DNA of 64,000 nt from Candidatus Woesebacteria bacterium. Its GTDB lineage: Bacteria > Patescibacteriota > Microgenomatia > UBA1400 > UBA12108. The translations under genes were made by a program, and so were the position numbers. How positions within the stretch are numbered: position 1 is the stretch's first letter; each line of letters begins with the position of its first letter. A model generated the notes under the pieces. The model searched no databases. It worked only from the letters and a program-made list of their open reading frames with translations, and was not told the origin of the DNA. Below are positions 13,655 to 61,995 of the stretch, in pieces. Location of the stretch: contig JAGOVG010000004.1 in assembly GCA_018060845.1 (NCBI GenBank), positions 12,118-76,117 on the forward strand, read 5' to 3'.

Positions 13655-13963
13655 CTAGACACGCACTATCTCCACATGACTACTGCCATCATCCAACATG
13701 ACAGTCTCACCTATAAACTGCATAACTTTCTCACGTTCAAATCTAACTATTCGATCAAAGTCATCTTCTCCTTCAGTAACAGTTATGATTAGGTCATGAA
13801 AAAATCTAATTAGAGCGAATAGCTCTCCGCCAGCGGTAAAACTAACTTCACTCCCAGGCTGTGCCATTGCGATCCCATCTCTAGTTATATGCACTAGATC
13901 AGGCGTTGTGGTCGTATACACTAATTTAGTATTAAACTTGTAGTTAAATATTACTTCGTACAT
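13655..13963 (-). CDS. hypothetical protein co-transcribed downstream of the recombinase
   Basis: 102-aa ORF whose start overlaps the recombinase stop (ATGA). Confidence 0.35.
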   Translation of the reverse strand: MYEVIFNYKFNTKLVYTTTTPDLVHITRDGIAMAQPGSEVSFTAGGELFALIRFFHDLIITVTEGEDDFDRIVRFEREKVMQFIGETVMLDDGSSHVEIVRV

Positions 13964-14925
13964 TATTCCTCTTCATTCCCGCTATGATACTTCTCATGTA
14001 TCGTCCTAAGCTGTGGGTTAGTTACATGGGTATAGATCTGGGTAGTCGCAATGTTCTTGTGTCCTAGCATCTCCTGCACCTCGCGCAGTCCAGCTCCGTG
14101 TGACAGCAGGTCAGTCGCAAAGCTATGTCGCATCACGTGAGGAGTTATAGAGACTGGTAGATGGGCTAGGCGGCCATAGTGACCAATAATCCTCTGTACA
14201 CTCCGTGTGGTTAATCGCAGCTTTTCTCCTGCCTTGGGATCAGCGATATCCATCTTCTTGCCATGGTGGCTAATAAAGATCGGGTGATAGTGATCGTTTC
14301 GCTCCCTCAGATATTTCTCGATCCACCCAGCCGCTCTCGGGGATAAAAACACAACCCTGATCTTACGACCTTTACCAACGACCCCAAACTCCCTGGTCTC
14401 TAGGTTTACCGTCGTCTTATTAAGGGACACCAGCTCCGATACACGCAGTCCCGTCGAAAAGAGCACCTCCATTAGCACTCTATCTCTTAGTCCTCTAATG
14501 GTAGTAGTATCGACCTTTGCTATCATCGACTCTACATGTGTATAGTCGAGGAATTTGATCGAGTGCTCCTTACCTTTGGGTAGCTCTAACTTGTCGGGAG
14601 ACACCACCTCATAGTCCTGTCTGATCAGGTAGCGCAACAGGGACCTGATTGCGATCGCATAATAGCTCTGAGTCACAGGTGAGAGATATTGGCCTTTGTC
14701 GTCCTTGTGTTGAGCGAGGTAAGCGCGATATGTCTTTAGCAACTTAGCCGTAATATCGGCCAAGTTAGTCTGGGGATAGTATTGGTTTAGCCAGGAGGCA
14801 AACTTCCCTAGATAAAAGCGATAGTTACGAATCGTAAATGGTGATACCTGTCGCTCCACAGATAGGTACTCGAGGTACTCCAAGATTGCATCCTCTAACT
14901 TAGGGGCTTTGGCATTAGCAGTCAT
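13963..14925 (-). CDS. tyrosine site-specific recombinase, XerC/XerD family
   Basis: C-terminal catalytic region RHSFATDLL…LGHKNIATTQIYTHV with a Xer-like N-terminal core-binding domain; 320 aa. Confidence 0.85.
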   Translation of the reverse strand: MTANAKAPKLEDAILEYLEYLSVERQVSPFTIRNYRFYLGKFASWLNQYYPQTNLADITAKLLKTYRAYLAQHKDDKGQYLSPVTQSYYAIAIRSLLRYLIRQDYEVVSPDKLELPKGKEHSIKFLDYTHVESMIAKVDTTTIRGLRDRVLMEVLFSTGLRVSELVSLNKTTVNLETREFGVVGKGRKIRVVFLSPRAAGWIEKYLRERNDHYHPIFISHHGKKMDIADPKAGEKLRLTTRSVQRIIGHYGRLAHLPVSITPHVMRHSFATDLLSHGAGLREVQEMLGHKNIATTQIYTHVTNPQLRTIHEKYHSGNEEE

Positions 14926-18469: not shown

Positions 18470-19372
18470 TTAAAAAAGCTCTAGTGCGTCTTTTCCTACC
18501 CACATCACTATCCCTGCTCTATACTCGGCCGTATCGCCAATTTCATATGGCTTAAATCTAAACACTCGCTCCATCAGGGTCAGTGTCATCAAGGCATTCT
18601 TTGGCTCTGCTACCGTCATCCGGGTCACATCACTCACCTGGGTCCCACTCCTGACAGTTATAACGTCCAACCCCATATTGTCTAAGAACTGCGCCATATC
18701 ACTCCCTAGCCCACTCTCCCCGCTCTCATTAATAATAGAGACTGTTACCCCCTCTTTGCCCACACCCCAATCAAAAAAAGATTTACCTACATAGTTAGAA
18801 AGCGCCAAAGGCGCATACTCTAATTTAGATTTTTCTCCTGTCACAATAACGCCAGCACGCACCAAGTCCTCGCGAGCAACGAGCCGCCCGCCGTAGCTAC
18901 GCAGCGACTGGATCAGTCGGTATGCATCAAAGAGTGTCAGGTTATCTTCACTATTTCTCCTCCACATCGCCCGGTAAAGTGAAGATGATAGTGAAGAGTC
19001 CACCGGTCCCTCGCCCTCCAAGTTAACTAGGTAGCCAACAATTGGTAGCTTCATAAATCCCTGCACTTTGCGACGCGCAAACTCGCCTCCTTGATTTTTA
19101 TACGAGCCGAGCTTATACAAACTCCCTATCTCGTACTCCCCGACGCTGCGAGAGGTAATGGCTAAGGTCTCAGGGTAAGTTATGATCATTACCTTTTCTT
19201 CGACCGGGTCAAAAGTAGCTACACTCACTCGGCTCCCTCCCTGATCTATATACACCAAGTTAAACCGAGCCTCAGGCGAGACAACGCTCTCTTTCATCAC
19301 TTTTGCAACCGTCCCGACTACAATCAACCCAATCATTACTATTACTAGATAAGATAGCCACTTAAGATGCAT
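18470..19372 (-). CDS. membrane-anchored LytR_C / LCP-like protein
   Basis: N-terminal TM. C-terminal GVTVSIINESGESGLGSDMAQFLDNMGLDVITV resembles a LytR C-terminal domain. Confidence 0.4.
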   Translation of the reverse strand: MHLKWLSYLVIVMIGLIVVGTVAKVMKESVVSPEARFNLVYIDQGGSRVSVATFDPVEEKVMIITYPETLAITSRSVGEYEIGSLYKLGSYKNQGGEFARRKVQGFMKLPIVGYLVNLEGEGPVDSSLSSSLYRAMWRRNSEDNLTLFDAYRLIQSLRSYGGRLVAREDLVRAGVIVTGEKSKLEYAPLALSNYVGKSFFDWGVGKEGVTVSIINESGESGLGSDMAQFLDNMGLDVITVRSGTQVSDVTRMTVAEPKNALMTLTLMERVFRFKPYEIGDTAEYRAGIVMWVGKDALELF

Positions 19373-28875: not shown

Positions 28876-29784
28876 ATGTTAATGTCCAAATCACGCAAGC
28901 TTGCCTATGCTGCCCTACTCTATAATGCCGTGATCTGGGGTGCCGCCTTCCCTATCGTCAAGCCAGCCTTTGAGTTCCTGACTCCCCTCCAGTTTTTATT
29001 CTTCAGATATTTAACCTCAGGGATTTTCGCACTACCTATTTTTATTACTTTTTATATCAAAAAGCATCCAAAAGTATCTAATATTATCAAACCAGTGCTC
29101 TTAGAGCTGGCAGGCTTGGCACTCCCGATCTACCTCCTATACGAAGGCATGAGCAGGACCAGTGCCCTCGAGGCTTCCCTAATCGGCTCGACCGGTCCCC
29201 TCTTTGTCATCTTGGGCGGGATTATCTTTCTCAGAGAACGTGAGAGCAAGAGAGAATGGCAAGGCTTAGCCTTATCATTCATTGGTTCATTTATCCTTAT
29301 CCTCGAGCCACTATGGAATGGGCATGGTTTTATTGGTAGTAGCCTGACAGGCAACCTACTCATCCTCTCGCACAATATTCTCTTTGCCATATACGCAATC
29401 ACAGCCAAAAAACTATACAAAAAGAAGCCACCCCTATCCCTTGGTTCGCTTTATTACCTCGGTACTGCTGGTGTATATGCCCTCATCTTGTCTGGACAAC
29501 AACAACTCCCAAGCTTAAACCTTTTACTCAACTACAGTGTAGTATTACCAATTCTCTACATGGCAGTACTCGGCGGGATCATCGCTAATATCTTCTATCT
29601 GTTTGCCGCGAGTCGCATCGAAGTCTCCGAAGCCAATCTCTTTACTTATCTCAATGGTATTTTTGCTATACCTGCAGCATTTTTATTACTAGGTGAAAAG
29701 CCAAGCCTTACCACTATCATTGCAATCGCTATCATCGCCTACGGCGTCTATCGGGCAGAAGTTAATTCCCGAATAACTGGATAA
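28876..29784 (+). CDS. EamA/DMT-family transporter
   Basis: 302 aa with ten hydrophobic helices in a duplicated 5+5 pattern. Confidence 0.6.
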   Translation: MLMSKSRKLAYAALLYNAVIWGAAFPIVKPAFEFLTPLQFLFFRYLTSGIFALPIFITFYIKKHPKVSNIIKPVLLELAGLALPIYLLYEGMSRTSALEASLIGSTGPLFVILGGIIFLRERESKREWQGLALSFIGSFILILEPLWNGHGFIGSSLTGNLLILSHNILFAIYAITAKKLYKKKPPLSLGSLYYLGTAGVYALILSGQQQLPSLNLLLNYSVVLPILYMAVLGGIIANIFYLFAASRIEVSEANLFTYLNGIFAIPAAFLLLGEKPSLTTIIAIAIIAYGVYRAEVNSRITG

Positions 29785-30250
29785 ATGGCACCTCTCCAGG
29801 GACTTTAATTATTCTCGGCTTACTGTCCACGCTATCATCTTGAACAGTAACGTCATACAACCATATTCCATTCCAGCTAGGATCCTCTCTAACACTTTTT
29901 GCCCAATCTGGATTAGCCGCAATAGATAATACTAAACATGAGACTGCTCCAACAAGAGAGTGATGGGATGTCGAGGGGTCGTCCCCATCAAGTACAACTC
30001 TGAGCTTACCATCCCATATTATCATTTCGCCACTATCTCCATGAGCGTATCCGAAGCTCATGTGTGCTGATTGATCAGTACTTCGAGCCTCAACTTTATG
30101 AGATTTTAACAACTTGTCTGCCAGCTCTTCAATGGAGTATCTTTTTGCTTCTAACCCTAGGATTAGCATATTATAACCATATAATGTAATCCCATAATTA
30201 TACTCTTTTTTGTCAAGTTTCGGTTTTCCCGCCTGGAAAGGCACTATCAT
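29762..30250 (-). CDS. hypothetical protein (the ORF track extends it to 30409)
   Basis: The internal Met at 30250 avoids antisense overlap with rpmE. Confidence 0.3.
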   Translation of the reverse strand: MIVPFQAGKPKLDKKEYNYGITLYGYNMLILGLEAKRYSIEELADKLLKSHKVEARSTDQSAHMSFGYAHGDSGEMIIWDGKLRVVLDGDDPSTSHHSLVGAVSCLVLSIAANPDWAKSVREDPSWNGIWLYDVTVQDDSVDSKPRIIKVPGEVPFIQLFGN

Positions 30251-30296
30251 CCAGCATCTTCCCTCATCTCCCCTCTTCGTGTTACAATATCCCTCT

Positions 30297-30581
30297 ATGA
30301 AAGCCAACTTGCATCCAAAATACAACCAGCTAAACGTCACCTGCAGTTGTGGTGCCAGCTTTACCACTGGTTCGACCCGCGACAGCATAGTCGTTGATAT
30401 CTGCAGCAAATGTCACCCCTTCTTCACTGGTGAGCAGCGTTTTGTCGACAAAGTAGGTCGCGTGCAGAAATACCAGGCCAAAGCAGCCGCAGCCACTGGT
30501 AAAAAAGCCAAAAAAGATCGCAAATCCACCCAGTCTGGCCCAGCCTCCCTCACCGAACTTCGCGCATCTCAAGCCAAATAG
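30297..30581 (+). CDS. rpmE: 50S ribosomal protein L31 with C-terminal basic extension
   Basis: MKANLHPKYN…CSCGASF…CSKCHPFFTG is the L31 zinc-ribbon signature. The ORF-track start at 30210 is an over-extension. Confidence 0.8.
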   Translation: MKANLHPKYNQLNVTCSCGASFTTGSTRDSIVVDICSKCHPFFTGEQRFVDKVGRVQKYQAKAAAATGKKAKKDRKSTQSGPASLTELRASQAK

Positions 30582-30632
30582 ATATCCTACCCCACACTAG
30601 GTTCTTTATACTCGGTACTTTATACTAAATTC

Positions 30633-31661
30633 ATGCCAGTCGATTACCAACAAATAGTCAAAGCCTACGATACTCTGGTAACAGAGTCCTCTGAGCCTGG
30701 CAATGTCGATAGACTGGGCGAGATTGGCGAAGCCTTATCTGATCTCGAAGAAAAAATTTCTTTAGCCAGACAGTTAGTAAAGATCGACGAGGATCTAAGT
30801 GGCAACGAGAGTCTACTTAGTGACCCCGAGATGCGCTCTATGGCGCAGGACGAGATTTACCGTCTCAATGCCGAAAAAAGCGCTGTCTTAGAGGAACTCC
30901 AGAACCTGGAGCGTGCCACAGAAAATACCGAGGACAAAAGGCCCGCTATTATCGAGTTCCGCCCCGGTGCCGGTGGCGAAGAAGCTAAGATTTGGGTCAA
31001 TGACCTCTTCCGCATGTATACCCGCTTTGCCGAGCTCATGGGGATCAAATACGAGCTACTAGATGAGAACACCTATCTCTTTACAGGCCGCCCTAATGAC
31101 CCCTCCCTCCCTCAGGGCTCCTATGGCCTATTCAAGTGGGAGAGCGGCGTCCACAGGGTCCAGCGAGTCCCAGCAACAGAAGCTCAAGGGCGTATCCACA
31201 CTAGTACCGCAAGCCTTGCAGTCCTCCCAAAAGTCGATGCCCAAAAACTAGTGATTCGAGAAGAAGAGTTAGAGTGGCAGTTCTTCCGCGCTGGCGGCCA
31301 CGGTGGTCAGAACGTAAATAAGGTTAGCACAGCGGTCCGCCTGATCCATATCCCGACAGGCATTGCTGTCGTTAGTACTCAGGAGAGGTATCAGCAAAGA
31401 AACCGCGAGATCTGTCTAGATCTTTTGCGTTCTCAGCTCTGGGAAAAACAAGAGGAGGAGCGACTAGCCAAGCTAGATAGTCAAAGAAAGAGTGCCGTCG
31501 GTCGCGGCATGCGAGCCGAGAAGATCAGGACCTACAACTATCCCCAAAACCGGGTGACCGACCACCGTATCAACATTAGTTGGCACAACCTTAGCGGTAT
31601 CCTCGAAGGTGATATTACAGATCTCATCAAGACCGTAGGCATCGAAATGACCAAAGATTAA
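30633..31661 (+). CDS. prfA: peptide chain release factor 1
   Basis: GGQ motif ([11 protein letters not shown]) and the PAT tripeptide region ([17 protein letters not shown]) typical of RF1. Confidence 0.9.
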
Positions 31662-31672
31662 TTTATTAGTAA

Positions 31673-31726
31673 CTACTCACCCCGCAGCTCCACTTTCACC
31701 CGCTCAATCTTTTCATCTCTCCAGAC
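31673..31726 (-). pseudogene. duplicated 3'-terminal fragment of htrA (encodes VWRDEKIERVKVELRGE-stop)
   Basis: The reverse complement translates to an 18-codon paralog of the htrA C-terminus (VWRDEKTEKLSVELRGE-stop). The first 19 nt are near-identical to 32853..32871. Confidence 0.6.
31708..31726. repeat. direct repeat TCTTTTCATCTCTCCAGAC (left copy)
   Basis: 18/19 identical to 32853..32871 (TCTTTTCATCCCTCCAGAC). The pair brackets the 31767..32843 gene. Confidence 0.75.
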
Positions 31727-31766
31727 ATCGTAGCGAGCTAACATCTTTCATTAGTATCCTATAACA

Positions 31767-32843
31767 TTGACAGTCAATAACAATTATGTTACTATTTCGA
31801 GTATTATGACGAACCGACCAGATTTATTATTAGTAAATAGTGCAATCCCAGAATTAAAAAAGGACTACACCCCCGAAACACCTATCGGCTTAGCTGTCAA
31901 AGCTGCATCAAGCTTTCTCAATCAACGGTGGAACAAGGAGAAGCATGCTTTATACATCTACCCTAGAGATCTAACACCCGAAGTTAGTACACCATCTATG
32001 TCTAAAGACGATGTTGTCAACGAGACCACAACAAGAATCGCCGGCTTACTAAACGCATATGAAGTCGCTAATATTACACGACCAACTCCAGAAAATGAAA
32101 CTCAATCCTATATGGAAGATGCTCTAAGAGCCTTAGGTAAGGTAGTAGCAACGGGTCATAATAGTACATCTATGGAAGATAGGGAAAGAGCAAGTATAAT
32201 CCAAAATGCACTGGGAATAGAAATAGGAACAGATAGGAGTAATCAGCTCATTCTAGAGAGTCAAATAAACCTCGCATTAAATCATGAATCAAAAAGCACA
32301 CTCAGAGACTTGCAAAATAGTACTCTAGAGATTGTCGTCAATGACGCTGTGTTGGAAAATGGAGGATTAGTCGTAGAAGAAGATAAATCTACAGGTGCAG
32401 TTTTACATCGGACCCAAGACGTAAGAGATCTTCTTAAAAAATCAATGGGAGAAACTGCTTATACTAGACTAGAAAACTCTGGATTAATCAAAAATAAAGA
32501 GGCACTAACTTTGGCTTTAAAACAAGCTATAAATCACCAAATTGAAAAAAGAGGAATAGGATCGGTTGAAGACAAAAAAGCCTCGATTCTCGAAGATGCT
32601 TTCAAAAGTGCCTATCTGCTCCCCTTTGCAAGCATTTTTAGCTTATCCTGCCTGGGATATGGAATGGCGATGTTAGGAGGTAACCCTGAGTCAGCTATAG
32701 ATCAATTTGGCGCTCTATTTCATGGATTTATAGGGATATCTAGCGGTACGACCGTGGCAGTTATATATAGTCTAACTGGTGGCAAAAAGTTAGTAGATTC
32801 ATTTCGTGAATACAACTCACTCTCCTCTGAGTTCGACACTTAA
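31767..32843 (+). CDS. hypothetical protein with C-terminal hydrophobic Gly-rich segment (cassette gene)
   Basis: 358-aa ORF, AT-richer than its neighbours by eye. Flanked by 19-bp direct repeats. Confidence 0.45.
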   Translation: MTVNNNYVTISSIMTNRPDLLLVNSAIPELKKDYTPETPIGLAVKAASSFLNQRWNKEKHALYIYPRDLTPEVSTPSMSKDDVVNETTTRIAGLLNAYEVANITRPTPENETQSYMEDALRALGKVVATGHNSTSMEDRERASIIQNALGIEIGTDRSNQLILESQINLALNHESKSTLRDLQNSTLEIVVNDAVLENGGLVVEEDKSTGAVLHRTQDVRDLLKKSMGETAYTRLENSGLIKNKEALTLALKQAINHQIEKRGIGSVEDKKASILEDAFKSAYLLPFASIFSLSCLGYGMAMLGGNPESAIDQFGALFHGFIGISSGTTVAVIYSLTGGKKLVDSFREYNSLSSEFDT

Positions 32844-34037
32844 TTTCTCCGTCTTTTCATCCCTCCAGACCTCTACCTCCACTTTATCTCCTATTTTCTT
32901 TTTCCCCAGTAGCTCAGCTAACCCGGTACGTCCTGAGCTTGCCGAAGGATCTATTTCACTTAACTTCTTGCCATCAAAACTCACAATAATGTCTCCTTTT
33001 TTAATCCCAGCTGAGTCGGCGCTCGAGTCTTTGACTACCTCGACCACATATCCCCCAGCCGGTACCCCGTTTAGTATCCCCTGCTCTTTCGTAATCGTCT
33101 GGTAGCGTACGCCAAAGAATGGTCTATCAAATGCCCCAGTCTCGTTAAAATTCTTCATAGATTCTTTGACCAGGTTGATCGGCAGTGCAAAACCAATATT
33201 GTTAGCTCCCTGCGAAACCGCCACATTCACCCCAATCACTTGTCCGAGCGAGTTAAGTAGTGGCCCACCAGAATTACCTGGATTAATTGCAGCATCTGTC
33301 TGGATTACATTATCTAGCTTCTCAGCAAAAGAGTACCCATCACCTGCAGTGATCCCTCGACCGAGTCCTGATATAACTCCAGTCGTCACGGTATGGCGAA
33401 ACTCCCCGAGCGCCGTCCCGATCGCAATTACAAAGTTTCCTACCTTTAGCCTGTCCGAGTCACCCATCTCGATCGCTCTATACACCTCTTGCCCTTCCGA
33501 AGCCGTAGGCGAAGGAGGGTCTATTTTTAATATTGCCAAATCATTAGCTGGATCTCGCCAGATCTTCTCGACCTGGTGCTCACTCTCATCCTTTAGCACC
33601 ACTTTGTAGTCACTAGGCGACCCTGATGAGACTACATGCTTGTTGGTAACTACCAGCCCTGCCTCATCTATGACAAATCCGCTCCCGATATCTACCTGCT
33701 CAGACTCTACCTCTCCCGATGGGCGCGACCCGCGGAACATCCCAAATGGGTCGAGGAAATATTGCTCGAGTATCGGTGTCTCTCGCTTAAAAGTGACTGT
33801 GACTACTCCAGCCGATACCTTTTCGGCAACCTCTGTTACCACATTCTCTTCGTTAACAACCCGCTGGTTAATTACCTCGGATGCACCACTTCCACTCCCC
33901 AGATTTAGATTCCTCAAAAATGGCAGCCCCCAGATCTGCTCAGATACTGCCCCGCCAATAAATACGGAAACCAAAAATATCCCCGACATAAGTCCTATGA
34001 CAAAAGTTGACAAGCTCTTACTTTTCATAACAATCAA
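32817..34037 (-). CDS. htrA: HtrA/DegP-family serine protease with PDZ domain
   Basis: N-terminal TM anchor. Trypsin-like catalytic motifs (…VVTNKHVV…, GNSGGPL) and a C-terminal PDZ domain. Confidence 0.85.
   Translation of the reverse strand: MIVMKSKSLSTFVIGLMSGIFLVSVFIGGAVSEQIWGLPFLRNLNLGSGSGASEVINQRVVNEENVVTEVAEKVSAGVVTVTFKRETPILEQYFLDPFGMFRGSRPSGEVESEQVDIGSGFVIDEAGLVVTNKHVVSSGSPSDYKVVLKDESEHQVEKIWRDPANDLAILKIDPPSPTASEGQEVYRAIEMGDSDRLKVGNFVIAIGTALGEFRHTVTTGVISGLGRGITAGDGYSFAEKLDNVIQTDAAINPGNSGGPLLNSLGQVIGVNVAVSQGANNIGFALPINLVKESMKNFNETGAFDRPFFGVRYQTITKEQGILNGVPAGGYVVEVVKDSSADSAGIKKGDIIVSFDGKKLSEIDPSASSGRTGLAELLGKKKIGDKVEVEVWRDEKTEKLSVELRGE
32853..32871. repeat. direct repeat TCTTTTCATCCCTCCAGAC (right copy, inside the htrA 3' coding end)
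   Basis: See 31708..31726. Confidence 0.75.
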
Positions 34038-34103
34038 AATTTACTAAATATCATCGATAATTTCAAGTTCATGATTTTTAATCGTACCTATGACTATGCG
34101 TAT

Positions 34104-34424
34104 TTAGTTTTTTTCCCACAGTTCAATTACTTTAGTACAAGTCTCATTCTTAATTTCTAACACCACAAGTAACGCCTTTAACATCTCAACGTCAACAACA
34201 CCAGCATCTCTAGTATGCATAATGTCTACTTGAAATTTATCCAAACTATCATTACGACTACCCATTGCTAGCTCAAAAAATACTACCAAGTGACTTTTTA
34301 ATACGTCTCTATCACCGTCAAAGTTAGGATAGTTATTCGCAAACTGCAAAATAGTTAGCTCTATTTCTTTATGCTTAGAAATAAGCATAGGATCACCGTT
34401 ATACCACTCAGTATCATTACTCAT
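34104..34424 (-). CDS. hypothetical small protein (AT-rich islet)
   Basis: 106-aa ORF with no family assignment. Confidence 0.35.
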   Translation of the reverse strand: MSNDTEWYNGDPMLISKHKEIELTILQFANNYPNFDGDRDVLKSHLVVFFELAMGSRNDSLDKFQVDIMHTRDAGVVDVEMLKALLVVLEIKNETCTKVIELWEKN

Positions 34425-34475
34425 AAATATTCGAAGTGTATACCATGTTTATTATCATGTCTGCGGCCAAAATAC

Positions 34476-34793
34476 TTAGAGTGATATTGTTCTTATCTTC
34501 CCAATAGATGCATACTTTCTGAGTAATACTTCATAATTAGCATTGATTCCACTACTACTATTAGCAGCAATACCATTGACTACATCATCTACGCTGAGAA
34601 CTATGTCTAACATCTCAGCTATATAGCTAGGATCTGCTGAACCAGATATGTATGTGATCAATAAAGGTTTAAAACCTACAATTCCTAATGTCTCAAAATT
34701 AGCATCAGGGCTATCATCTCCTACATCAACCACTACCCGTTTCTGTCCATCCGTGCTTTTAAAAACAGTACCAAATTCAATAGACGTCATCAA
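34476..34793 (-). CDS. hypothetical small protein (AT-rich islet)
   Basis: 105-aa ORF with no family assignment. Confidence 0.35.
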   Translation of the reverse strand: MMTSIEFGTVFKSTDGQKRVVVDVGDDSPDANFETLGIVGFKPLLITYISGSADPSYIAEMLDIVLSVDDVVNGIAANSSSGINANYEVLLRKYASIGKIRTISL

Positions 34794-34827
34794 AATATTT
34801 TCTCACACCCGTCAACCTAAAGAAATA

Positions 34828-36069
34828 TTAGAAAGACTCTAGCGCCTTATTTAGCTGCTCATCCACTTCTGTCTCGTCCTCTTTTGCAAGTATATCTTCC
34901 ACTACCACATCTGGCGTTACCCCTTTTTCGCCGATCCAGGATCCTGATGGGAGTATCCACTTGGCAACAGTCACATGCAAGCTCGATCCATCAGATAGGT
35001 CCTGCACTTCCTGCACCGTCCCCTTGCCAAAACTCTGCTCACCCACTATCTTAGCCCGTTTATTGTCCTGCAGCGCTCCTGCCACGATCTCAGAGGCCGA
35101 GGCAGATCCTTTGTTAACCAGAACAACTAGTGGGATCTTGATCAGGCTCCCGTTACGATTAACACTATATGTCTCTCCATCATTTCTACCTTCTTGCTTA
35201 ACTATCACTCCATTCTCCAAAAACTCACTCGCCACATATACCGCTCCATCCAGATATCCTCCTGGGTTATTACGAAGGTCCAAAACTACTCCTGCAGGCC
35301 TCTTAGCTATGATCTCGGCCACCTTTTCGCTCCATTCCCGGTCAGTCCTACCCCCAAAACGATGAAGCTCTAGGTGCGCATAGCTCTTCCCTGCTTTTTC
35401 GACATATGCTAGTTCGACCGATGGTACCACGATCTCATCACGAGTTAGAGTTAGGTCAAAAGATTTTGTAACACCCTCACGATAAATAGTCAGGATAACA
35501 TCTGTCCCCTTATCACCCCTGATATGAGACACGGCTGTCGGTAGACTCATCCCTCTGGTATCCAGGTCTACCCCCTTTTTCTCGTCTTTGATATGTAAGA
35601 TAAAATCGCCTGCTTTTACCCCAGCTCGCTCCGCAGGCGAGTTGGCAATCGGCGCTATTGCAGTTAGTGTCTGCTCTTTGTACCCTAGCTCTATCCCAAC
35701 GCCATAAAACGTTCCGTTCAGATCTTCATTTGCTGCTTTGTTCTCTTTGGGTGGCAGATATTGGGTATAGGGGTCCCCTAGTGACTGGGCTAGTCCTGCC
35801 ATGGCTCCCCAGGTCATCTGCGCATAATCGAGCTTACTCGGATCTACATAAGACTTCTCTAATCTCTTCCACACTTCCCAGAACTTGCCAAAATCAGCTG
35901 CATCTACTGCTTCGCCATTTGGCGTCTCAACAAATCTCTTAACAACATTTGGTGCAGCCGAGCGGCCACTGCGCCAGTCAGAGACCTGGTAACCTGCCGC
36001 AAAGACTAGGACGGCTAGCGCCAAAGTCACAAAAAAATTGCGCAATCCACGATAAGTCAGCTTAACCAT
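34828..36069 (-). CDS. ctpA: carboxyl-terminal processing protease (S41 family)
   Basis: N-terminal TM anchor, PDZ domain, and the S41 catalytic region GSASASEIVAGALQD…GKGTVQ. Confidence 0.85.
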   Translation of the reverse strand: MVKLTYRGLRNFFVTLALAVLVFAAGYQVSDWRSGRSAAPNVVKRFVETPNGEAVDAADFGKFWEVWKRLEKSYVDPSKLDYAQMTWGAMAGLAQSLGDPYTQYLPPKENKAANEDLNGTFYGVGIELGYKEQTLTAIAPIANSPAERAGVKAGDFILHIKDEKKGVDLDTRGMSLPTAVSHIRGDKGTDVILTIYREGVTKSFDLTLTRDEIVVPSVELAYVEKAGKSYAHLELHRFGGRTDREWSEKVAEIIAKRPAGVVLDLRNNPGGYLDGAVYVASEFLENGVIVKQEGRNDGETYSVNRNGSLIKIPLVVLVNKGSASASEIVAGALQDNKRAKIVGEQSFGKGTVQEVQDLSDGSSLHVTVAKWILPSGSWIGEKGVTPDVVVEDILAKEDETEVDEQLNKALESF

Positions 36070-36129
36070 TGCTAAATCTTACACGAAAATATCTCTTACG
36101 GCTATACGGGTTAACGGATTTACTAGAAT

Positions 36130-36351
36130 TTAGTTAGCAAAAGGAAGAAGGGCGAGCATGCGAGCGCGCTTTACTGCTTTCATGAGTGCTCTCTGACTCT
36201 TTGCAGATAGTCCGGTACGTGCGCGGGACAAGATGCGACCCTTTTCTGTGACAAATCTGGATAGCGTAGCGCTATCTTTGTAATCAAAACTCATTCCAGC
36301 ATCAGCTTTACCAACTACTGGTTTCTCTAATCTTACTTTTTTCTTTTGCAT
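36130..36351 (-). CDS. rpsR: 30S ribosomal protein S18
   Basis: …[51 protein letters not shown] is the S18 signature. Confidence 0.9.
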
Positions 36352-36393
36352 TTTATGTCCTTACTTTAGACTTTATAAACTTTTAACTTTAAA

Positions 36394-36954
36394 CTAAAAA
36401 GGAATATCCTCAACATTCACCTCATCAGAGAGTGATGTCTCGACTTTTTCCTCTTCTTTAACTGCTTTTTTGGTAGTTTTTTTGGCTGGGGCATCAGCAG
36501 GAGCCGCGACAGCTGGAGCTTGGGCCATATCACCACCATTTGATGAGCCTTGATCTTCGCCTGCACCGACAAAATCGTCTTCACTGTAGTTACCGCCTCC
36601 GTTACCATCGCGGTTGCGGGTGTCGAGAATCATCATATTTTCGGCGACTATCTCGGTTACCTCGCGCTGCTGTCCATCTTGGCCAGTGAATTTGCGAGTC
36701 TGGAGACGCCCCTCTATATAGATGCGGCGACCCTTAAACAGTAGCTGTCCGCAGATCTCTGCTAGCTTACTCCAGGCGACAATACGGTGGAACTGAGTTT
36801 CTTCTTGGCGTTCTCCTCCGTCACCTGCACTCCAACTACGGTTAGTAGCGAGACCAAAGGTGGCAACAGCTGTACCACTAGGGGTATAGCGCACGTCCAC
36901 GTCGCGGGTTAAGTTACCGATTATCATTACTTTGTTAAGTGATCTTGATGACAT
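36394..36954 (-). CDS. ssb: single-stranded DNA-binding protein
   Basis: OB-fold SSB core (…NKVMIIGNLTRD…) and the acidic C-terminal DIPF tail. The ORF track extends the start to 36987. Confidence 0.9.
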   Translation of the reverse strand: MSSRSLNKVMIIGNLTRDVDVRYTPSGTAVATFGLATNRSWSAGDGGERQEETQFHRIVAWSKLAEICGQLLFKGRRIYIEGRLQTRKFTGQDGQQREVTEIVAENMMILDTRNRDGNGGGNYSEDDFVGAGEDQGSSNGGDMAQAPAVAAPADAPAKKTTKKAVKEEEKVETSLSDEVNVEDIPF

Positions 36955-38510: not shown

Positions 38511-39089
38511 TCATTCATTTCTTTCATTCTCAATTTCTCTTCCCAAAACCTTATCTTCTAGACATTCCATCATGAGTTCCCACAAATAATAACTACTCGA
38601 TCCTGTACCATGCGCGTCATATGCCTCGGATACTGGATCCATCACATCTTCGAAGGTTTTATTTTTACCAAAACCTAGCATTACTCCGTGTCCATATTTT
38701 TGTATTGTCCTCAACAGCTTAACCATGTTACCTAGTTTCTGGTCAGTCTCTAAATTATCAACAAATGATGAAGTAAGAAATGTATCAAAATTTCTAGCTA
38801 TTAGATATTTTCCGCTCTGACTCCACGCTGTTGGATCCCAATCAACTATTCCTGTTAATTTTTCTAAGTCTGCTTGGGTCGGTAAATCGTTAAAATCTAC
38901 TGTTAATATTTCTTTATCAGTTATTTTTGAAATCGATTCAATAAATGTAGGTGTTAAATATTGATCGCTATGCAAAGCTAGTGCACATCTTCCTAAATTC
39001 ACTTGATGGACAGCATATGCTCTATCCTTGGTTGGCTCAAAACCAGCAGCTAAGAGTTCTTGAATGACAATCTCGTGGTTAGTTTGCAT
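38511..39089 (-). CDS. hypothetical protein (AT-rich island)
   Basis: 192-aa ORF with no motif recognised. Confidence 0.4.
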   Translation of the reverse strand: MQTNHEIVIQELLAAGFEPTKDRAYAVHQVNLGRCALALHSDQYLTPTFIESISKITDKEILTVDFNDLPTQADLEKLTGIVDWDPTAWSQSGKYLIARNFDTFLTSSFVDNLETDQKLGNMVKLLRTIQKYGHGVMLGFGKNKTFEDVMDPVSEAYDAHGTGSSSYYLWELMMECLEDKVLGREIENERNE

Positions 39090-39264
39090 ATGAGTATTCT
39101 ATCAAATCAGGTACTCTAGATACTACTATTCGGCCAAGTGAATCACGCAACGCAATAAATCGTTCTTTACGTAGCTTAGGTAAAACAAATTGAAATTGGA
39201 ATTCTAAGAATGGTACTGTAAATCTGGCGTTCCTACAGATAAAGACATGACATGATTTTATCAT
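39079..39264 (-). CDS. small hypothetical ORF
   Basis: 61-aa ORF. Weak evidence. Confidence 0.2.
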   Translation of the reverse strand: MIKSCHVFICRNARFTVPFLEFQFQFVLPKLRKERFIALRDSLGRIVVSRVPDLIEYSYAN

Positions 39265-39285
39265 GCATATCCTCTATCAGGATTA

Positions 39286-39723
39286 TTATTGTTTTTTTCT
39301 ACTATTATTTACAACATGAATTGCAACATCAACCATTCCCTTCAATCCTCTCATTCCAATACCTAACTCGAACCCTGTAATATACCCAGCTAGAGACAGG
39401 TTTAAAACATCTGGGTTATTCATTGCTGTAGTAGTAATGGGTGATGTTAACAAAACGAGTGTTGGAGGTAGTAAAAATACTGCTAAAGAGAGCAATGCTT
39501 CAGCCATTATATTATCTACACCAGTAGACGTTTCGTCATATGCATCTTCAACTAAATGAGGTTTAACAGCAGATATAGTTCGATCAGCAACGTACGCTCC
39601 AGAAAACATGCCTAAAAACAAAGACGTTATTGGTGCATATTTCAATAGGTCATGAAAGTTTTCTAAACGACTCATGGCAACTAGACTATAGCATATTTCT
39701 GATAAAATATACCTATGGGACAT
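39286..39723 (-). CDS. hypothetical membrane protein
   Basis: 145 aa with hydrophobic segments. Its start overlaps the divergent 39715 ORF start. Confidence 0.35.
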   Translation of the reverse strand: MSHRYILSEICYSLVAMSRLENFHDLLKYAPITSLFLGMFSGAYVADRTISAVKPHLVEDAYDETSTGVDNIMAEALLSLAVFLLPPTLVLLTSPITTTAMNNPDVLNLSLAGYITGFELGIGMRGLKGMVDVAIHVVNNSRKKQ

Positions 39724-50680: not shown

Positions 50681-51046
50681 ATGATTAGAGATGTCACAAA
50701 TTTAGACGTCTACCAACTCTCATTTGAAGCGCTAGAAATTTTATATAAACTTGTGATCAAAATCCCGCATTCCGAGAGAGATACCATAGATCAATTGAAA
50801 CGTGCAAGCGAATCTGTGCCCGCAAATATTGCCGAAGGCTTTGCCAAAAGATCATCAGAAAAAGAATTTAAACGTTTTCTTAAAATAGCAATCGGATCTA
50901 GTGATGAGGTAGTGACTCACCTTAGAATGGTCTGCATTACAGTCCCAAATTTACAACCACAAGCAATACAAGTTGCAGACACTTTCACAGTCCTATCCAA
51001 AAGATTAAACAAATTGCATTCAGTCTGGCGAACAGGTAATTTCTAA
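50681..51046 (+). CDS. four-helix-bundle protein, 23S rRNA intervening-sequence protein family (PF05635/TIGR02436-like)
   Basis: …SVPANIAEGFAKRSSEKEFKRFLKIAIGSSDEVVTHLRM… is the family signature. One of three paralogs in the window. Confidence 0.75.
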   Translation: MIRDVTNLDVYQLSFEALEILYKLVIKIPHSERDTIDQLKRASESVPANIAEGFAKRSSEKEFKRFLKIAIGSSDEVVTHLRMVCITVPNLQPQAIQVADTFTVLSKRLNKLHSVWRTGNF

Positions 51047-51052
51047 GTCATT

Positions 51053-51081
51053 AGAGTTTTCCGAGTATTCCGAGTCTTCCG
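51053..51081. repeat. downstream flank of cassette 1: GAGTTTTCCGAGTATTCCGAGTCTTCCGA
   Basis: Reverse complement of the upstream GAAAACTC tandem units. Confidence 0.65.
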
Positions 51082-51084
51082 ACC

Positions 51085-51588
51085 TCACCCCGCCCCCCAT
51101 GCCTTATTTTCTGCACTCGACCCCTGCGTCGCCGCCTTAAGGCCAATATCTTCCTGTTTTTTCTTTTGAAACTCAAACTCTTTTTTCTGCTCCTCTTTCT
51201 TCTCTTCGACCTGCTTACGCTGTTGTTCTTTTTGCTCAAACTCCATCCGGGCGCGTTGCATGCCGTCCTCTACACTCGAGTCTAACCCCCACTCACGGAC
51301 TAGCTGCTTACGCAACATCTCGATCTCCATCTGGTCTTTTTGACCAGACAGACCACTGTATTTGGTAAAGTCGTCTTGAGTCTTGAACCCTGCCTTAGCG
51401 ATGTCTTGCATCGGGTCATCATTCTGCCGCGCCCCTACCGTAGCACCTTGTGCGGAGGGGGGGTTACCTTGCTCTAGCTGCACCCCGACGGCGTCTTTGA
51501 CTATCTCCACAGGCTCAGACACCACTGATTTAACTACATGCTTAGCGAGCCCTGCCAGGTTTTGTCCTACTTGTTTCCAAACACTCAT
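51085..51588 (-). CDS. hypothetical charged coiled-coil protein
   Basis: 167 aa with a Lys/Glu-rich C-terminal half. Confidence 0.4.
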   Translation of the reverse strand: MSVWKQVGQNLAGLAKHVVKSVVSEPVEIVKDAVGVQLEQGNPPSAQGATVGARQNDDPMQDIAKAGFKTQDDFTKYSGLSGQKDQMEIEMLRKQLVREWGLDSSVEDGMQRARMEFEQKEQQRKQVEEKKEEQKKEFEFQKKKQEDIGLKAATQGSSAENKAWGAG

Positions 51589-51600
51589 CGATACAGTATG

Positions 51601-52092
51601 TTATATTTTCAGAACCTCTGCAACAACGTCATTAATATTTCTAGTAGCATCCACTCTTTTTACTTCAAAACTCGGCTCTTCAAACATCTCATATATTTCC
51701 ATCGCAAATTCAGGAGTTAAGATGTGACCAGGTCGATCTACTCGTTGCTTTAAAGTTTCAGAGTCAGTAGTGAGGTAAACCCATCTCAGAGAAGGAATCA
51801 TCTTGTATAACTGCAACCTATATCTATCCAACATAAAGTCGTAGGACATTACAAATTTGTTGTGCTTCTCTGTCAAATATGAAACTCTCTCAAAAATTGC
51901 TTCGTGCTGTCTGTCTCTCAGTTCTGGAGTTAGTCCTTTATTATTGCGATTTAGTTCTATTACTTCTGGCAACAAGTCATCATCTGCTTCGTAATAATGG
52001 TACCCAAAATTCTGCATTAACTTAGCTACACTAGTCTTACCTACCCCTGGAGTACCGAATAATATTACCCAATCAGATTCTTGTTTACCCAT
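51601..52092 (-). CDS. P-loop kinase, gluconokinase/shikimate-kinase-like (AAA_33-type)
   Basis: Walker A LFGTPGVGKTS, followed by the EADDDL… pattern seen in GntK-family kinases. Confidence 0.5.
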   Translation of the reverse strand: MGKQESDWVILFGTPGVGKTSVAKLMQNFGYHYYEADDDLLPEVIELNRNNKGLTPELRDRQHEAIFERVSYLTEKHNKFVMSYDFMLDRYRLQLYKMIPSLRWVYLTTDSETLKQRVDRPGHILTPEFAMEIYEMFEEPSFEVKRVDATRNINDVVAEVLKI

Positions 52093-52312
52093 TTAGGTAT
52101 TGTTTGGCAACTATTAATAGTACAAGAATAATCAAAGAATACAATAGGGTTTTGGTAAGATCCTTAACCACATAATGGCTCGATAGATATCCAAATTCGT
52201 TGCGATCTTTTTCGATCTGTTTCTCTTTGATCTTAAGACTAAAGTTCTGCAGTCTGTATGCAGATTTAACTTTTTCTTCCCGTGTCTTTTGCCTACTCAT
52301 ATTATTCAACAC
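52085..52312 (-). CDS. small TM protein
   Basis: 75 aa with a C-terminal TM helix. Overlaps neighbours by a few nt (operon). Confidence 0.3.
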   Translation of the reverse strand: MLNNMSRQKTREEKVKSAYRLQNFSLKIKEKQIEKDRNEFGYLSSHYVVKDLTKTLLYSLIILVLLIVAKQYLNG

Positions 52313-52320
52313 ACCTTAAC

Positions 52321-52890
52321 TCAATTGGAATCTTTGTATTCTCCATTATTATTCATATCTTCTTCGATTAATCTTCTTAAGTAGACAGCTCTAGGTATCC
52401 TCCTATTTTTGGAAATCCAGTCTAGATAAGTACCAATATTTGGAGATATGAAGAAATTAAACCTCACATCCTGGGCAGAGGCAACATAGTCAAGTCCACT
52501 ACTTAATACAGACTCTAAATCAGAATTTTTATATGACAACAGTGTGAGGCGCTCATCAATTCTACCTTGGAGAAACAATGGCTCTCTATCTTCGTGATAT
52601 AAAGCTACGACTGGCTTACCTATATCGAGGGCATAGGTCAAGATATGTCCAACATTGGCCGTAGAGGGATATGATATCTCGATTACTACAAAATCTGCAC
52701 TTTTTACATTGTTTAGAACTTCTCTATACCACGCTTCACGTTTATTTGCCGTAACATCACCTTTGTCATCATTAAATAAACTACCACTAAAAACCTTATG
52801 GCCTGCCTTAATTAGTAATTCATTAATTTTGCTGTAATAAATTCCTAAGTCAGACTTTTGAGTATGTGATGCTATAAATACTACTTTCAT
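52321..52890 (-). CDS. nucleoside 2-deoxyribosyltransferase-like Rossmann-fold protein
   Basis: MKVVFIASH…ADFVVIEISYPSTANVGHILTYALDIGKPVVAL resembles the NDT fold, but with His where the catalytic Glu is expected. Confidence 0.4.
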   Translation of the reverse strand: MKVVFIASHTQKSDLGIYYSKINELLIKAGHKVFSGSLFNDDKGDVTANKREAWYREVLNNVKSADFVVIEISYPSTANVGHILTYALDIGKPVVALYHEDREPLFLQGRIDERLTLLSYKNSDLESVLSSGLDYVASAQDVRFNFFISPNIGTYLDWISKNRRIPRAVYLRRLIEEDMNNNGEYKDSN

Positions 52891-53405
52891 AAAGTTTTAC
52901 ACTCCTTATATTTACTGAACTTAGATATTATTCTATCATCATGCAACTCATCATTTACAAAATCATCATGCTGAACGCTTGGGAGCTCAAATAAACTCCA
53001 CACATACTCAAAAGCATTCTCATCTATAATATGATCTAGATTTTTTATGCGATCCATGACCCTATTATGTGCAAGGGTTTTTGGGGCATGTACTAACACA
53101 AACTTCACTTGATTATCAAATCTATGTAGAAAATCTATCCTATTCTTGTCCTTAGCAAATGCTTGAGCTACTACTAGGACTTCGTCGTTCTTTAGTTTTG
53201 TTAGTATGTTTTCAACAGTACTAGACAACTTCTCAAAAAATTTATCTCTCATGTCATCACTATAATTACCCGATCGTATAGAGCGTCGATATTCATCATC
53301 AAACAGCACATCAGCATCAAAGAAATGCATTGATAGTTTCGACTCTAATACACCACCTATGTACGTTTTACCAACACCAGGTGGTCCAAACAGAACTATT
53401 ATCAT
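52887..53405 (-). CDS. P-loop kinase, gluconokinase-like
   Basis: Walker A LFGPPGVGKTY, then FFDADVL…DD…R and LVVAQAF…R pattern similar to GntK/IdnK. Confidence 0.55.
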   Translation of the reverse strand: MIIVLFGPPGVGKTYIGGVLESKLSMHFFDADVLFDDEYRRSIRSGNYSDDMRDKFFEKLSSTVENILTKLKNDEVLVVAQAFAKDKNRIDFLHRFDNQVKFVLVHAPKTLAHNRVMDRIKNLDHIIDENAFEYVWSLFELPSVQHDDFVNDELHDDRIISKFSKYKECKTL

Positions 53406-56460: not shown

Positions 56461-56489
56461 AAATCTCAAATTCTCAAATTCTCAAATTT
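56461..56489. repeat. AAATCTCAAATTCTCAAATTCTCAAATTT: inverted copy of the TTTGAGAATT repeat, downstream flank of cassette 2
   Basis: Three tandem AAATTCTCA units. The last 8 codons and stop of the four-helix-bundle gene are encoded by this repeat. Confidence 0.7.
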
Positions 56490-56840
56490 AGAAGATCCAA
56501 ATTTAATTTTCTTAATAATGGCACTAAGTATTAATGTTATTTCTCTGACTTCCTTTCTCAGGTCTGAATTATCTATACCTAAGACCTCCTCAGATATTCT
56601 CAGCCAATAACTAGTTTCTTTAGCTTCCTTTTTTGCTATAGAAAATCTATGGATAAATTCAGCTTTAGATTCAGACCCGTCTGCTTCTTGAGCATTAGCG
56701 CCTATAGATGTAGCAGATCTAATTAGTTGTTTAGCAATAACACTAGCCTCGAGAGTTTTAGGAAATTTTCGAATATATAGTATTGTGTTTACTGCAAATT
56801 TATAGATTCTCTCGTATATATCACGCTTGCTCTGATCCAT
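56466..56840 (-). CDS. four-helix-bundle protein, 23S rRNA IVS protein family (divergent paralog)
   Basis: …QLIRSATSIGANAQEADGSESKAEFIHRFSIAKKEAKETSYWLRI… matches the TIGR02436-type signature. Confidence 0.75.
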   Translation of the reverse strand: MDQSKRDIYERIYKFAVNTILYIRKFPKTLEASVIAKQLIRSATSIGANAQEADGSESKAEFIHRFSIAKKEAKETSYWLRISEEVLGIDNSDLRKEVREITLILSAIIKKIKFGSSKFENLRI

Positions 56841-58372: not shown

Positions 58373-58391
58373 AATAATATTGTAGCATTGA

Positions 58392-61427: not shown

Positions 61428-61443
61428 TTAGGTAGAACTTATA

Positions 61444-61995
61444 ATGAATAAAACAGAAATTGTTTTTCAATCACAAGCCGAGTTAATAAATTTCGTCGGA
61501 GGAGAGAACCTTCTAATTTCAAGAATGCTATCAGATCATCCAGCTATATCGAGCGAACCAAGAATATCATTAACCAGCACCTTAGTTACTCTGTTAAGCG
61601 AAGACTTGATCAGAGCTGACGAGCAATGTGCACTAGAACTATCGATTCAAAAATTCCGTGAGCTATCTTTAGTCAATATCCCATCTAGAGCAGAAGACAT
61701 TCACCAATATTTATATCCAGATAGTGAGACATCATTACAAGACACTAAAACTTTAATAGAATTATTATCAAAAGCAGCATTAATCACATATAAGGATAAG
61801 GGATATCATCTTGATACAGGTATTAGACGTCTAGCGCTAGTTGAGTATGAGTTAACCCAACCAGAACAATATGCTCATAGTCACATAAGCCTACTAATCA
61901 CAGCAATAGATTTACAAACTAGATATCCGGAAGCCAGTAGTTGGTATGATAATATGCTACCCGATATTGAGATTAAACAATTTACTAATAGGTAA
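61444..61995 (+). CDS. hypothetical protein
   Basis: 183-aa ORF, 16 nt after the previous stop (operon). Confidence 0.4.
   Translation: MNKTEIVFQSQAELINFVGGENLLISRMLSDHPAISSEPRISLTSTLVTLLSEDLIRADEQCALELSIQKFRELSLVNIPSRAEDIHQYLYPDSETSLQDTKTLIELLSKAALITYKDKGYHLDTGIRRLALVEYELTQPEQYAHSHISLLITAIDLQTRYPEASSWYDNMLPDIEIKQFTNR

Follow-up and report, generated by a model that had tools for sequence, protein, structure and literature searches.

A 1.14-kb single-gene insertion that appears to have exchanged the 3' end of htrA in a Woesebacteria-type bacterium of the Candidate Phyla Radiation

Integration inside the 3' end of a protein-coding gene, with a substitute end supplied for the target, is classically represented by phage 21 and the element e14 in the icd gene of Escherichia coli. 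The genomes of the Candidate Phyla Radiation (CPR) bacteria, or Patescibacteria, are tiny, belong to uncultured organisms, and are poor in recognizable mobile elements, and to our knowledge the gain of accessory genes in this group is poorly documented. Two further kinds of element are relevant to the locus described here. Two reviews describe cis-mobilizable elements (CIMEs) as att-flanked elements without recombination and transfer genes, for example those that flank the site of the integrative and conjugative elements (ICEs) ICESt1 and ICESt3 in the 3' end of the fda gene of Streptococcus thermophilus (PMC5704250, PMC7563491). Similarly, two other papers describe the microcin H47 island of E. 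coli as a small island that moves without a recombinase of its own via short direct repeats (PMC3191183), and by RecA-independent recombination (PMC5426353). Here, we analyzed a 64,000-nt stretch (hereafter, the window) of contig JAGOVG010000004.1 (assembly GCA_018060845.1, positions 12,118 to 76,117), from an uncultured Microgenomates/Woesebacteria-type CPR bacterium, in which a unit of 1144 bp with a single gene, orf345, lies between htrA, which encodes a serine protease, and prfA, which encodes peptide chain release factor 1. The unit is bracketed by two short direct repeats, one of which lies inside htrA, and two different versions of the last htrA codons are present, one on each side of orf345. 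Comparison with relatives that lack the unit points to displacement of the native htrA end, with a working end that came with the inserted DNA.

The two copies of the 19-nt repeat are identical at 18 of 19 positions (consensus TCTTTTCATC[T/C]CTCCAGAC), and their starts are 1144 bp apart. The homology of the left copy to the right one reaches over 31703-31726, that is, 24 nt with three mismatches. An earlier reading of this DNA from its letters alone (the sequence-only reading) had placed the left copy correctly and the right copy one base off, at 32853-32871. No further match to the 19-mer exists in the window even with three mismatches allowed (chance expectation, 0.07), and none of 100 shuffled sequences gave two matches; the repeat is thus unique in the window. 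The right copy lies in the 3' coding end of htrA, where it encodes VWRDEK, as had been noticed. On the minus strand, positions 31673-31726 encode VWRDEKIERVKVELRGE followed by a stop codon, which constitutes a second htrA C-terminus, and the true htrA gene ends in VWRDEKTEKLSVELRGE and a stop codon. In the following, tail_L denotes the leftover htrA tail beside prfA, and tail_R the tail that htrA now uses. Past the 19-mer, the two are identical at 18 of 35 nt, and five of their last six codons (VELRGE) differ, all synonymously, which agrees with the earlier description of the left region as a diverged htrA C-terminus conserved at the protein level. In the left copy, the htrA homology breaks off at 31726/31727, and the sequence beyond, upstream in the htrA orientation, is unrelated to htrA; such a sharp edge is what a defined htrA-like stretch on the incoming DNA would produce. 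When the C-terminus of each ORF (open reading frame) in the window was compared with its own 4 kb downstream, the highest score, 74, was that of the htrA pair, followed at a distance by 36 for the next pair, making htrA the lone outlier. The duplicated htrA tail is real and far beyond chance. A scan for duplication of the prfA tail found nothing, and an Rfam scan of 29000-36500 found nothing relevant.

For comparison, 160 related loci were taken from genome and metagenome collections, and in most of them htrA and prfA abut or overlap. The HtrA protein closest to that of the window (P0003, 90% identical, ending in ...IWRDEKTERVIVELRGE) is encoded on contigs L161 (JGI) and L162 (ENA), in which htrA is followed by 11 bp and then prfA, without an insert. 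The next closest protein (P0004, 87% identical; L170 and L171) is also separated from prfA by an 11-bp gap. Other insert-free relatives have a single tail abutting prfA (L002, L003, and L082, with gaps of 0-9 bp), and, beyond the two nearest relatives, five more distinct relatives have htrA-prfA gaps of 0-23 bp. None of the insert-free relatives L161/L162, L170/L171, L002, L003, and L082 carries an extra tail fragment. The empty sites at the prfA-htrA junction, together with the collinearity of tail_L and the L161 tail described below, support the earlier proposal that a replacement end was brought in and the original displaced.

Tail_L matches the L161 tail at 30 of 35 nt, and the next 25 nt, which comprise the spacer TTACTAATAAA and the end of prfA, match at 25 of 25. 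In contrast, tail_R matches the L161 tail at 21 of 35 nt and the next 25 nt at 10 of 25; its best nucleotide match is L001, at 27 of 35. The spacer is identical in L161/L162 and near-identical in L170/L171. Between the window and L161, 35% of the codons for the same amino acid differ in the htrA body and 30% in prfA, and the synonymous divergence (dS) is 0.69-0.79 and uniform along prfA. Past the likely crossover, one of eight such codons differs from L161 in tail_L, whereas in tail_R five of six differ, all three adjacent residues are replaced, and the stop codon is a different one. Judged from these alignments, a common history unites the htrA body with tail_L, the spacer, and prfA, and a different one unites tail_R with the low-GC gene next to it. 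Because the intact tail of L161 matches tail_L and not tail_R, tail_L appears to be the displaced native end, and the working end appears to have come with the insert. The gene itself is intact: htrA reads through the repeat into 11 codons and a stop codon of foreign origin, and the tail has the same length as in relatives. An early doubt arose from the tails of L001-L003 and L082 (HtrA 83-86% identical; TEK[LI][SGN]VEL type), to which tail_R is nearer than tail_L, as a reversed model would have it; this was resolved by the closer relatives P0003/L161 and P0004/L170. The same arrangement was found in three further independent assemblies from other samples (L163, L172, and, in part, L164), of which L163 is 98.6% identical to the window over 2.9 kb. 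Since the structure recurs in this way, it is not an assembly artifact. The coordinates of the features are listed in Table 1.

Table 1. Features of the htrA-prfA junction in the window (nucleotide positions) and lengths of the htrA-prfA gap in four related loci.
Feature	Position or length	Strand	Description
prfA	30633..31661	+	Peptide chain release factor 1; Pfam PCRF, RF-1; convergent with htrA
Native spacer	31662..31672		11 bp, TTACTAATAAA in htrA orientation; separates the former htrA stop codon from that of prfA
Putative displaced native htrA 3' end (tail_L)	31673..31707	-	Encodes IERVKVELRGE-stop; detached from any gene
Left 19-nt direct repeat	31708..31726		TCTTTTCATCTCTCCAGAC; attR-like in htrA orientation
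Inserted unit	31727..32870		1144 bp with one repeat copy; absent from empty-site relatives
Sigma-70-like promoter	31767..31795	+	TTGACA-17-TACTAT, TG before -10; 10/12 hexamer matches; consensus match only
orf345	31806..32843	+	ORFan cargo gene, 345 aa; listed as a 358-aa ORF from TTG 31767
Hypervariable orf345 segment	32550..32800	+	Hydrophobic hairpin; compared with L164 478-728
Putative substitute htrA 3' end (tail_R)	32817..32851	-	Encodes TEKLSVELRGE-stop
Right 19-nt direct repeat	32852..32870		TCTTTTCATCCCTCCAGAC; attL-like; inside htrA codons VWRDEK
htrA	32817..34037	-	Trypsin-like serine protease with PDZ domain; Pfam Trypsin_2, PDZ_2; NCBIfam HtrA/Do family
L001 gap	1705 bp		Three ORFs
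L012 gap	1711 bp
L004 gap	596 bp
L018 gap	2464 bp		dCTP deaminase, Phd-like antitoxin, weak PIN-domain protein, ORFans

In terms of its anatomy, the unit starts with a 40-bp arm, continues with the promoter and the cargo gene, and ends with the substitute htrA tail and the repeat. It contains one ORF only, and there is room for no further gene, recombinase included; the earlier statement that it has no integrase of its own therefore holds. The promoter-like site ends 10 nt upstream of the ATG at 31806, and the TTG start of the 358-aa ORF listed at 31767..32843 coincides with its -35 hexamer. The cargo gene most likely starts at this ATG and encodes 345 amino acids, as in the public gene calls (P0001), and the 358-aa version with its TTG start, which the sequence-only reading had used, is less likely. 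That reading had also described the gene as visibly AT-rich, which is correct, with a GC content of 0.36-0.41 in the inserted unit versus 0.47-0.55 in the flanks; however, the gene is not unique in this respect, as the AT content of about a dozen other ORFan genes in the window is equal or higher, and low GC is thus a mark of the accessory genes of this genome generally and not of the cargo gene alone. The last nine codons of orf345 and the last eight codons plus stop of tail_R share 27 bp (32817-32843) in a codon-aligned antisense arrangement, in which the TAA stop codon of orf345 is the antisense of a TTA leucine codon in tail_R. Transcription from the predicted cargo promoter would run antisense into htrA.

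The position of the exchange can be narrowed within the repeat. The copies share GTCTGGAG[G/A]GATGAAAAGA[CG/TT]GAG, and at both informative sites the right copy has the residue of L161/L170 (AGG; ACG or ACC), whereas the left copy has AGA and ATT. Because the right copy carries the native residue at both sites, the crossover would lie at or next to the final GAG. The most economical reconstruction, though not a secure one, is that the incoming attP encoded VWRDEKIEKLSVELRGE-stop and that the native site encoded VWRDEKTERV(K/I)VELRGE-stop. This placement depends on two informative sites, which later mutation could mimic, and L163 has a G/A polymorphism in the right copy.

The geometry of the product is that of a single reciprocal crossover with a circular molecule. 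In our judgment, circular foreign DNA of approximately 1.14 kb probably entered the end of htrA by one such crossover, which was likely catalyzed by a recombinase from elsewhere. In this scenario, a small circular or circularized molecule would have integrated in the manner of Campbell, with the exchange inside a 19-24-nt stretch whose start lies 17 codons ahead of the htrA stop. The incoming unit would have carried a copy of this stretch together with its own last 11 htrA codons, orf345, and the promoter of orf345. The htrA body would then read into the tail of the unit, so that HtrA stays full-length, and the native tail would be left beyond the unit as a 54-nt fragment, at its old distance of 11 bp from prfA. 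The circular form would join the 31727 side via the repeat to the 32851 side (...GCTCGCTACGAT-GTCTGGAGAGATGAAAAGATTGAG-AAATTAAGTGTCGAAC... in the htrA orientation), and the empty site would join the htrA body via the repeat to CGGGTGAAAGTGGAGCTG.... The catalyst would most likely be a site-specific recombinase that is encoded elsewhere or has since been lost, making the unit a non-autonomous, CIME-like islet that ordinary homologous recombination in its flanking genes may now carry from one related strain to another.

Several observations weigh against the involvement of such a recombinase. The unit encodes none, as its one ORF has no family match. Among twenty mid-sized window ORFs that were annotated, one encodes a tyrosine recombinase (320 aa, 13963-14925, minus strand), 17 kb from the insert; its best matches are XerD/XerC models, below the curated cut-offs, and it is presumably a housekeeping dimer resolvase. 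This Xer-like enzyme is the sole recombinase found in the window, and nothing ties its gene to the junction. In a tblastn search with the Xer-like protein, no relative was found within approximately 6 kb of htrA in 172 loci, a screen that very divergent integrases and all serine recombinases would escape. The sequence-only reading had spoken of site-specific integration into the 3' end of a gene; replacement of the 3' end is supported, whereas "site-specific" is unproven, given that no integrase was found in the unit or near htrA in these 172 loci. No plasmid, phage, or autonomous element with the same junction or cargo was detected when viral contigs were scanned for the predicted attP tail and for the arm-repeat junction, and with the cargo protein as query. 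The repeat lacks the dyad symmetry typical of simple recombinase core sites. In addition, the 19-mer is conserved at the nucleotide level throughout the clade (17-18 of 19), so that its near-identity in the two copies is no evidence in itself of a recombination core; an argument that near-identity of the 19-mer beside diverged tails proves homogenization by crossover was withdrawn for this reason, as the tail is variable everywhere. Finally, in two further candidate events in related loci, L018 and L025, the homology begins 45 and 24 nt ahead of the stop (-45 and -24) and not at position -54, unlike what a single fixed att site would give.

Regarding the catalyst, a recombinase acting in trans or since lost is the most likely, which is compatible with the earlier suggestion that the unit was mobilized in trans or is what is left of a larger element, and a one-off event by short homology is a serious rival, one that we regard as possible but somewhat doubtful. 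In the latter case, the product and its history would be the same, but no site-specific recombinase would have taken part: a circularized fragment with an htrA 3' segment of another Microgenomates lineage and an adjacent accessory gene would have recombined once through short or interrupted homology, by RecA on a short tract or by microhomology joining, and then become fixed. The lack of an integrase in the unit, in the window apart from the Xer-like gene, and near htrA in the 172 loci is in keeping with this, as are the differing positions of the L018 and L025 candidate junctions. At the nucleotide level, moreover, no part of the htrA 3' end is more conserved than the repeat, which is hence a natural place for diverged alleles to pair. 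The junction is also a general hotspot, in which approximately half of the near relatives carry unrelated low-GC ORFan inserts of 0.1-2.5 kb, mostly without tail duplication. However, the longest perfect identity between the repeat copies is 10 nt, which is short for RecA-dependent recombination, judging by minimal homology lengths. The origin of a circle containing exactly an htrA tail and one gene would also go unexplained, and two or three independent duplications at the end of one gene would be a coincidence without targeting, considering the difference between non-cognate and cognate pairs given below.

The hotspot can be described from the near relatives (HtrA at least 67% identical). 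In about half of them, the htrA-prfA gap measures 0-60 bp, and in the others it measures 0.1-2.5 kb and holds unrelated, low-GC, mostly ORFan genes. Besides ORFans, the ORFs in these inserts comprised those for a dCTP deaminase, an antitoxin, a protein with a weak match to the PIN domain, and a PEP carboxykinase (the last identified by eye), with no recombinase among them. When 18-mers common to the htrA end of a locus and its own gap were sought with up to two mismatches, only the window and L018 were picked up. In L018, the island listed in Table 1 is bracketed by an 18-nt repeat, GATAAGGA[A/G]ATGAAGAAG (DKEMKK), with one copy in the htrA 3' end, 45 nt ahead of the stop, and the other 2.2 kb downstream (5632-5649 and 7856-7873), the second copy being followed by a decayed tail-like reading, and the same structure is present in L166 and L167. 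The L018 island is likely a second tail-displacing insertion and is treated here as a candidate; contigs with that HtrA either carry the island or end too soon past htrA, and no empty site was found among them. As a control, 5 of 6500 non-cognate tail-gap pairs matched (18-mers, up to one mismatch), compared with 2 of approximately 50 cognate pairs. One of the five control matches placed the L005 tail on the same L018 fragment, and another brought up a segment in the htrA-prfA gap of L025 (3516-3536), AAGCTGGAGAAGAAACAG-TGA (KLEKKQ-stop), which is identical to the htrA tail of L036 and is a synonymous variant of L025's own tail. This segment is a possible third displaced tail, again a candidate; no empty-site relative was found for the L025 lineage. 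If real, the L018 and L025 junctions would occupy different positions in the same 50-nt region, as would be the case if several recombinases used different cores or if the process were driven by homology. A bolder generalization, which we consider unlikely, is that Microgenomates gain single accessory genes via minimal, recombinase-free "tail-swap" cassettes that mimic the 3' end of a conserved gene, enter at variable positions (-54 in the window, approximately -45 in L018, and approximately -24 in L025), and then spread by transformation and homologous recombination. If true, such cassettes would represent a distinct and recurrent mode of gene gain in ultra-small genomes largely without classical mobile elements.

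A minor rival, and an improbable one in our view, is the reverse history, in which tail_R would be native and orf345 an ordinary intergenic islet. The repeat, tail_L, the spacer, and the prfA end would then have been imported from an L161-like donor by homology-facilitated illegitimate recombination anchored in prfA, with the other end of the donor DNA joined upstream of orf345. Such an event could proceed from linear DNA with one homologous anchor and would need no integrase, recombination tracts are evident in the region, and tail_R (TEKLSVELRGE) is nearer than tail_L to the consensus of the wider clade (TEK[LMI]SVEL[KR]GE). However, although the htrA body is closest to L161 (90%), tail_R differs from it at five of six same-amino-acid codons, against a background of 35% (roughly p = 0.02), and at all three adjacent residues. 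Tail_L, prfA, and the htrA body are equally diverged from L161 (dS, 0.69-0.79), which fits co-inheritance and not a recently imported tract, and there is no reason why a donor fragment should end exactly where the homology to the other htrA copy starts. Least probable by far is that the htrA 3' end was duplicated locally and the copies then diverged, orf345 having arisen or inserted between them, or that the assembly is a two-strain chimera, because, although the two tails are alike at the protein level, their differences are overwhelmingly synonymous, implying long evolution of both as working ends and not of an untranslated duplicate, one tail is orthologous to that of the closest relative and the other is not, and the structure is present in four independent assemblies from different samples.

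After the insertion by a circular molecule proposed above, the islet seems to have moved between diverged backgrounds. Over 2905 bp, 40 positions distinguish the window from L163, and 33 of these belong to the part of the htrA body that lies to the right of 32987. Between the end of orf345 and a point approximately 120 bp into htrA, a block that takes in tail_R and the repeat, the window, L163, and L164 show 98-100% identity, whereas their htrA bodies differ by 10-20% beyond about 32980-32990 (compared over 32987-33320). This block of identity followed by divergent bodies indicates homologous recombination with a breakpoint within htrA, by which either the islet was transferred between backgrounds or the htrA body was exchanged. 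Within orf345, the segment at 32550-32800 shows 51-71% nucleotide identity to L164 without gaps, with both flanks at 95-100%; its dS is approximately 0.97 and its dN/dS (ratio of nonsynonymous to synonymous divergence) approximately 0.38, compared with a dS of 0.025 upstream. To judge by these patterns of substitution, the orf345 variants are old alleles of a functional protein that have been shuffled by recombination, which implies that the pool of such genes exceeds what the databases contain. As for L164 itself, the first 90 nt (the 5' end of this ENA contig) are non-homologous to the window and translate to PPPPLFFFKQKTAYEI..., with an MCIRDS pattern typical of sequencing-adaptor read-through, so that the contig is chimeric. 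L164 also has an in-frame stop within the cargo gene (NNTL*IVV).

The product of orf345 had no match in Pfam, PHROGs, PADLOC, NCBIfam, or the sequences of the Protein Data Bank (PDB), and in a word-indexed search of 5.8 billion proteins it matched itself only. An exhaustive HMMER search of 1.84 billion representatives identified two more relatives: P0122, a 71%-identical allele adjoining htrA in L164, and P0123, 27% identical, encoded by an equally AT-rich gene on an unrelated 1.8-kb contig (L165). A profile search added nothing, and the protein searches gave three relatives in total. AlphaFold, run on the three-sequence alignment, predicted a nearly all alpha-helical protein with one small beta-hairpin, at low confidence (pLDDT 55.6). 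The C-terminal part contains two long, glycine-rich, moderately hydrophobic helices, at approximately residues 265-292 and 301-326 (Kyte-Doolittle 1.2-1.5), and no signal peptide was apparent by eye. A Foldseek search of the model against the PDB yielded nothing at E <= 0.001; ClyA-family alpha-pore-forming toxins were among the non-significant matches, with TM scores of about 0.1-0.2, and are a weak lead only. Our guess from the model is that the protein may be made in the cytoplasm and insert into a membrane via its C-terminal helical hairpin; roles as a toxin, in immunity, or in host interaction would all be conceivable.

The surroundings of the insert comprise the gene for ribosomal protein L31 and prfA on the plus strand, the cargo ORF on the same strand, htrA on the minus strand, two small ORFan ORFs, and a gene for a ctpA-like S41 protease. 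The window HtrA is identical to P0002 (100%), and the public gene calls place its start at 33989, giving 390 aa. As a conserved right-hand neighbor of htrA in Microgenomates, prfA is found in the order ctp-htrA><prfA-L31 in most of the 160 related loci. The intergenic slot between ctp and htrA (34038-34827) is a second variable low-GC patch (GC, 0.31-0.38), containing two minus-strand ORFan ORFs, at 34104-34424 and 34476-34793; in relatives, the same slot holds an unrelated 124-aa ORF (L161 and L170) or a 92-aa ORF (L166). Because this slot is variable too, htrA has an accessory-gene slot on either side. In the window as a whole, coding GC is bimodal, with core genes at approximately 0.47-0.55 and a dozen or more short ORFs at 0.33-0.39, for example at 38511-39723, 50681-53405, 56466-56840, 60711-61995, and 63080-63445, several of which had no family match where tested. 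This distribution suggests a genome with a large AT-rich accessory or ORFan fraction. Further ORFs of 215, 308, 362, and 300 aa without a Pfam or NCBIfam match are located at 29762-30409, 57527-59480, and 18470-19372, all on the minus strand.

Several other classes of element were considered and rejected for the unit. An insertion sequence, a transposon, or a miniature inverted-repeat transposable element does not fit, as there are no terminal inverted repeats and no transposase, and the flanking 54-nt duplication consists of diverged orthologues and is not a copy made on insertion. An integron gene cassette was rejected because neither end has an inverted repeat or a structured element, and the sole tyrosine recombinase of the window is Xer-like and 17 kb away. 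An integrative mobile element exploiting Xer (IMEX), which would use XerC/D at dif, is likewise not indicated: the junction lies in the htrA codons VWRDEK and has no dyad symmetry, and nothing connects the Xer-like gene with the site.

Among the known systems, the closest in structure are phage 21 and e14 in icd. As in those cases, the crossover would lie inside the coding 3' end, direct repeats are present at both junctions, one of them within the target gene, and a substitute end with mainly synonymous differences keeps the protein intact, with the original end left as a fragment beyond the element. The displaced end is orthologous to the gene end at the unoccupied sites of relatives, as is also the case for elements of this type. 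In contrast to phage 21 and e14, which measure 10-40 kb and encode their own integrase by the att site, the unit measures 1.14 kb, carries a single ORFan gene without a recombinase, and resides in a CPR host. Like a CIME, it has att-like direct repeats, of inferred att function, around an integrase-free cargo in the 3' end of a housekeeping gene, has no transfer gene, and presumably depends on a recombinase from another element. However, CIMEs are known by an autonomous partner at the same site, an ICE or an integrative and mobilizable element, and no such partner was found at the site in the 172 loci or in viral contigs. The unit thus has the structure of a 3'-end-replacing element without an integrase of its own, and it is not classifiable as a CIME without a partner element. 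We know of no CPR bacteria that carry ICEs. The unit shares with the microcin H47 island its small size, short imperfect direct repeats, and the lack of its own site-specific recombinase, but the repeats of that island are not part of a replaced gene end, and its organism and cargo are unrelated. As in variable intergenic islets, the htrA-prfA and ctp-htrA junctions hold unrelated low-GC ORFans, and the mosaic flanks show homologous exchange; nevertheless, ordinary islet turnover leaves no duplicated, displaced gene end, whereas here the junction is inside coding sequence.

The locus provides an example, resolved to the base pair and with both occupied and empty sites, of how foreign DNA can enter via the coding end of an essential-type gene without harming the gene, the islet afterward being shuffled between strains by homologous recombination. 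A stranded tail that has diverged synonymously from its working counterpart makes it possible to date and orient insertions, even those from which the integrase is gone, which is useful in annotation. If entry without a recombinase were true and general, it would constitute a new route of gene gain; as it stands, the locus is a tidy instance of a known mechanism. Its mode of insertion is that already described for elements at the 3' ends of genes, and what sets it apart from them is its minimal size, its dual-coding tail, its CPR host, its lack of a recombinase of its own, and an unusually clean comparison of occupied and empty sites.

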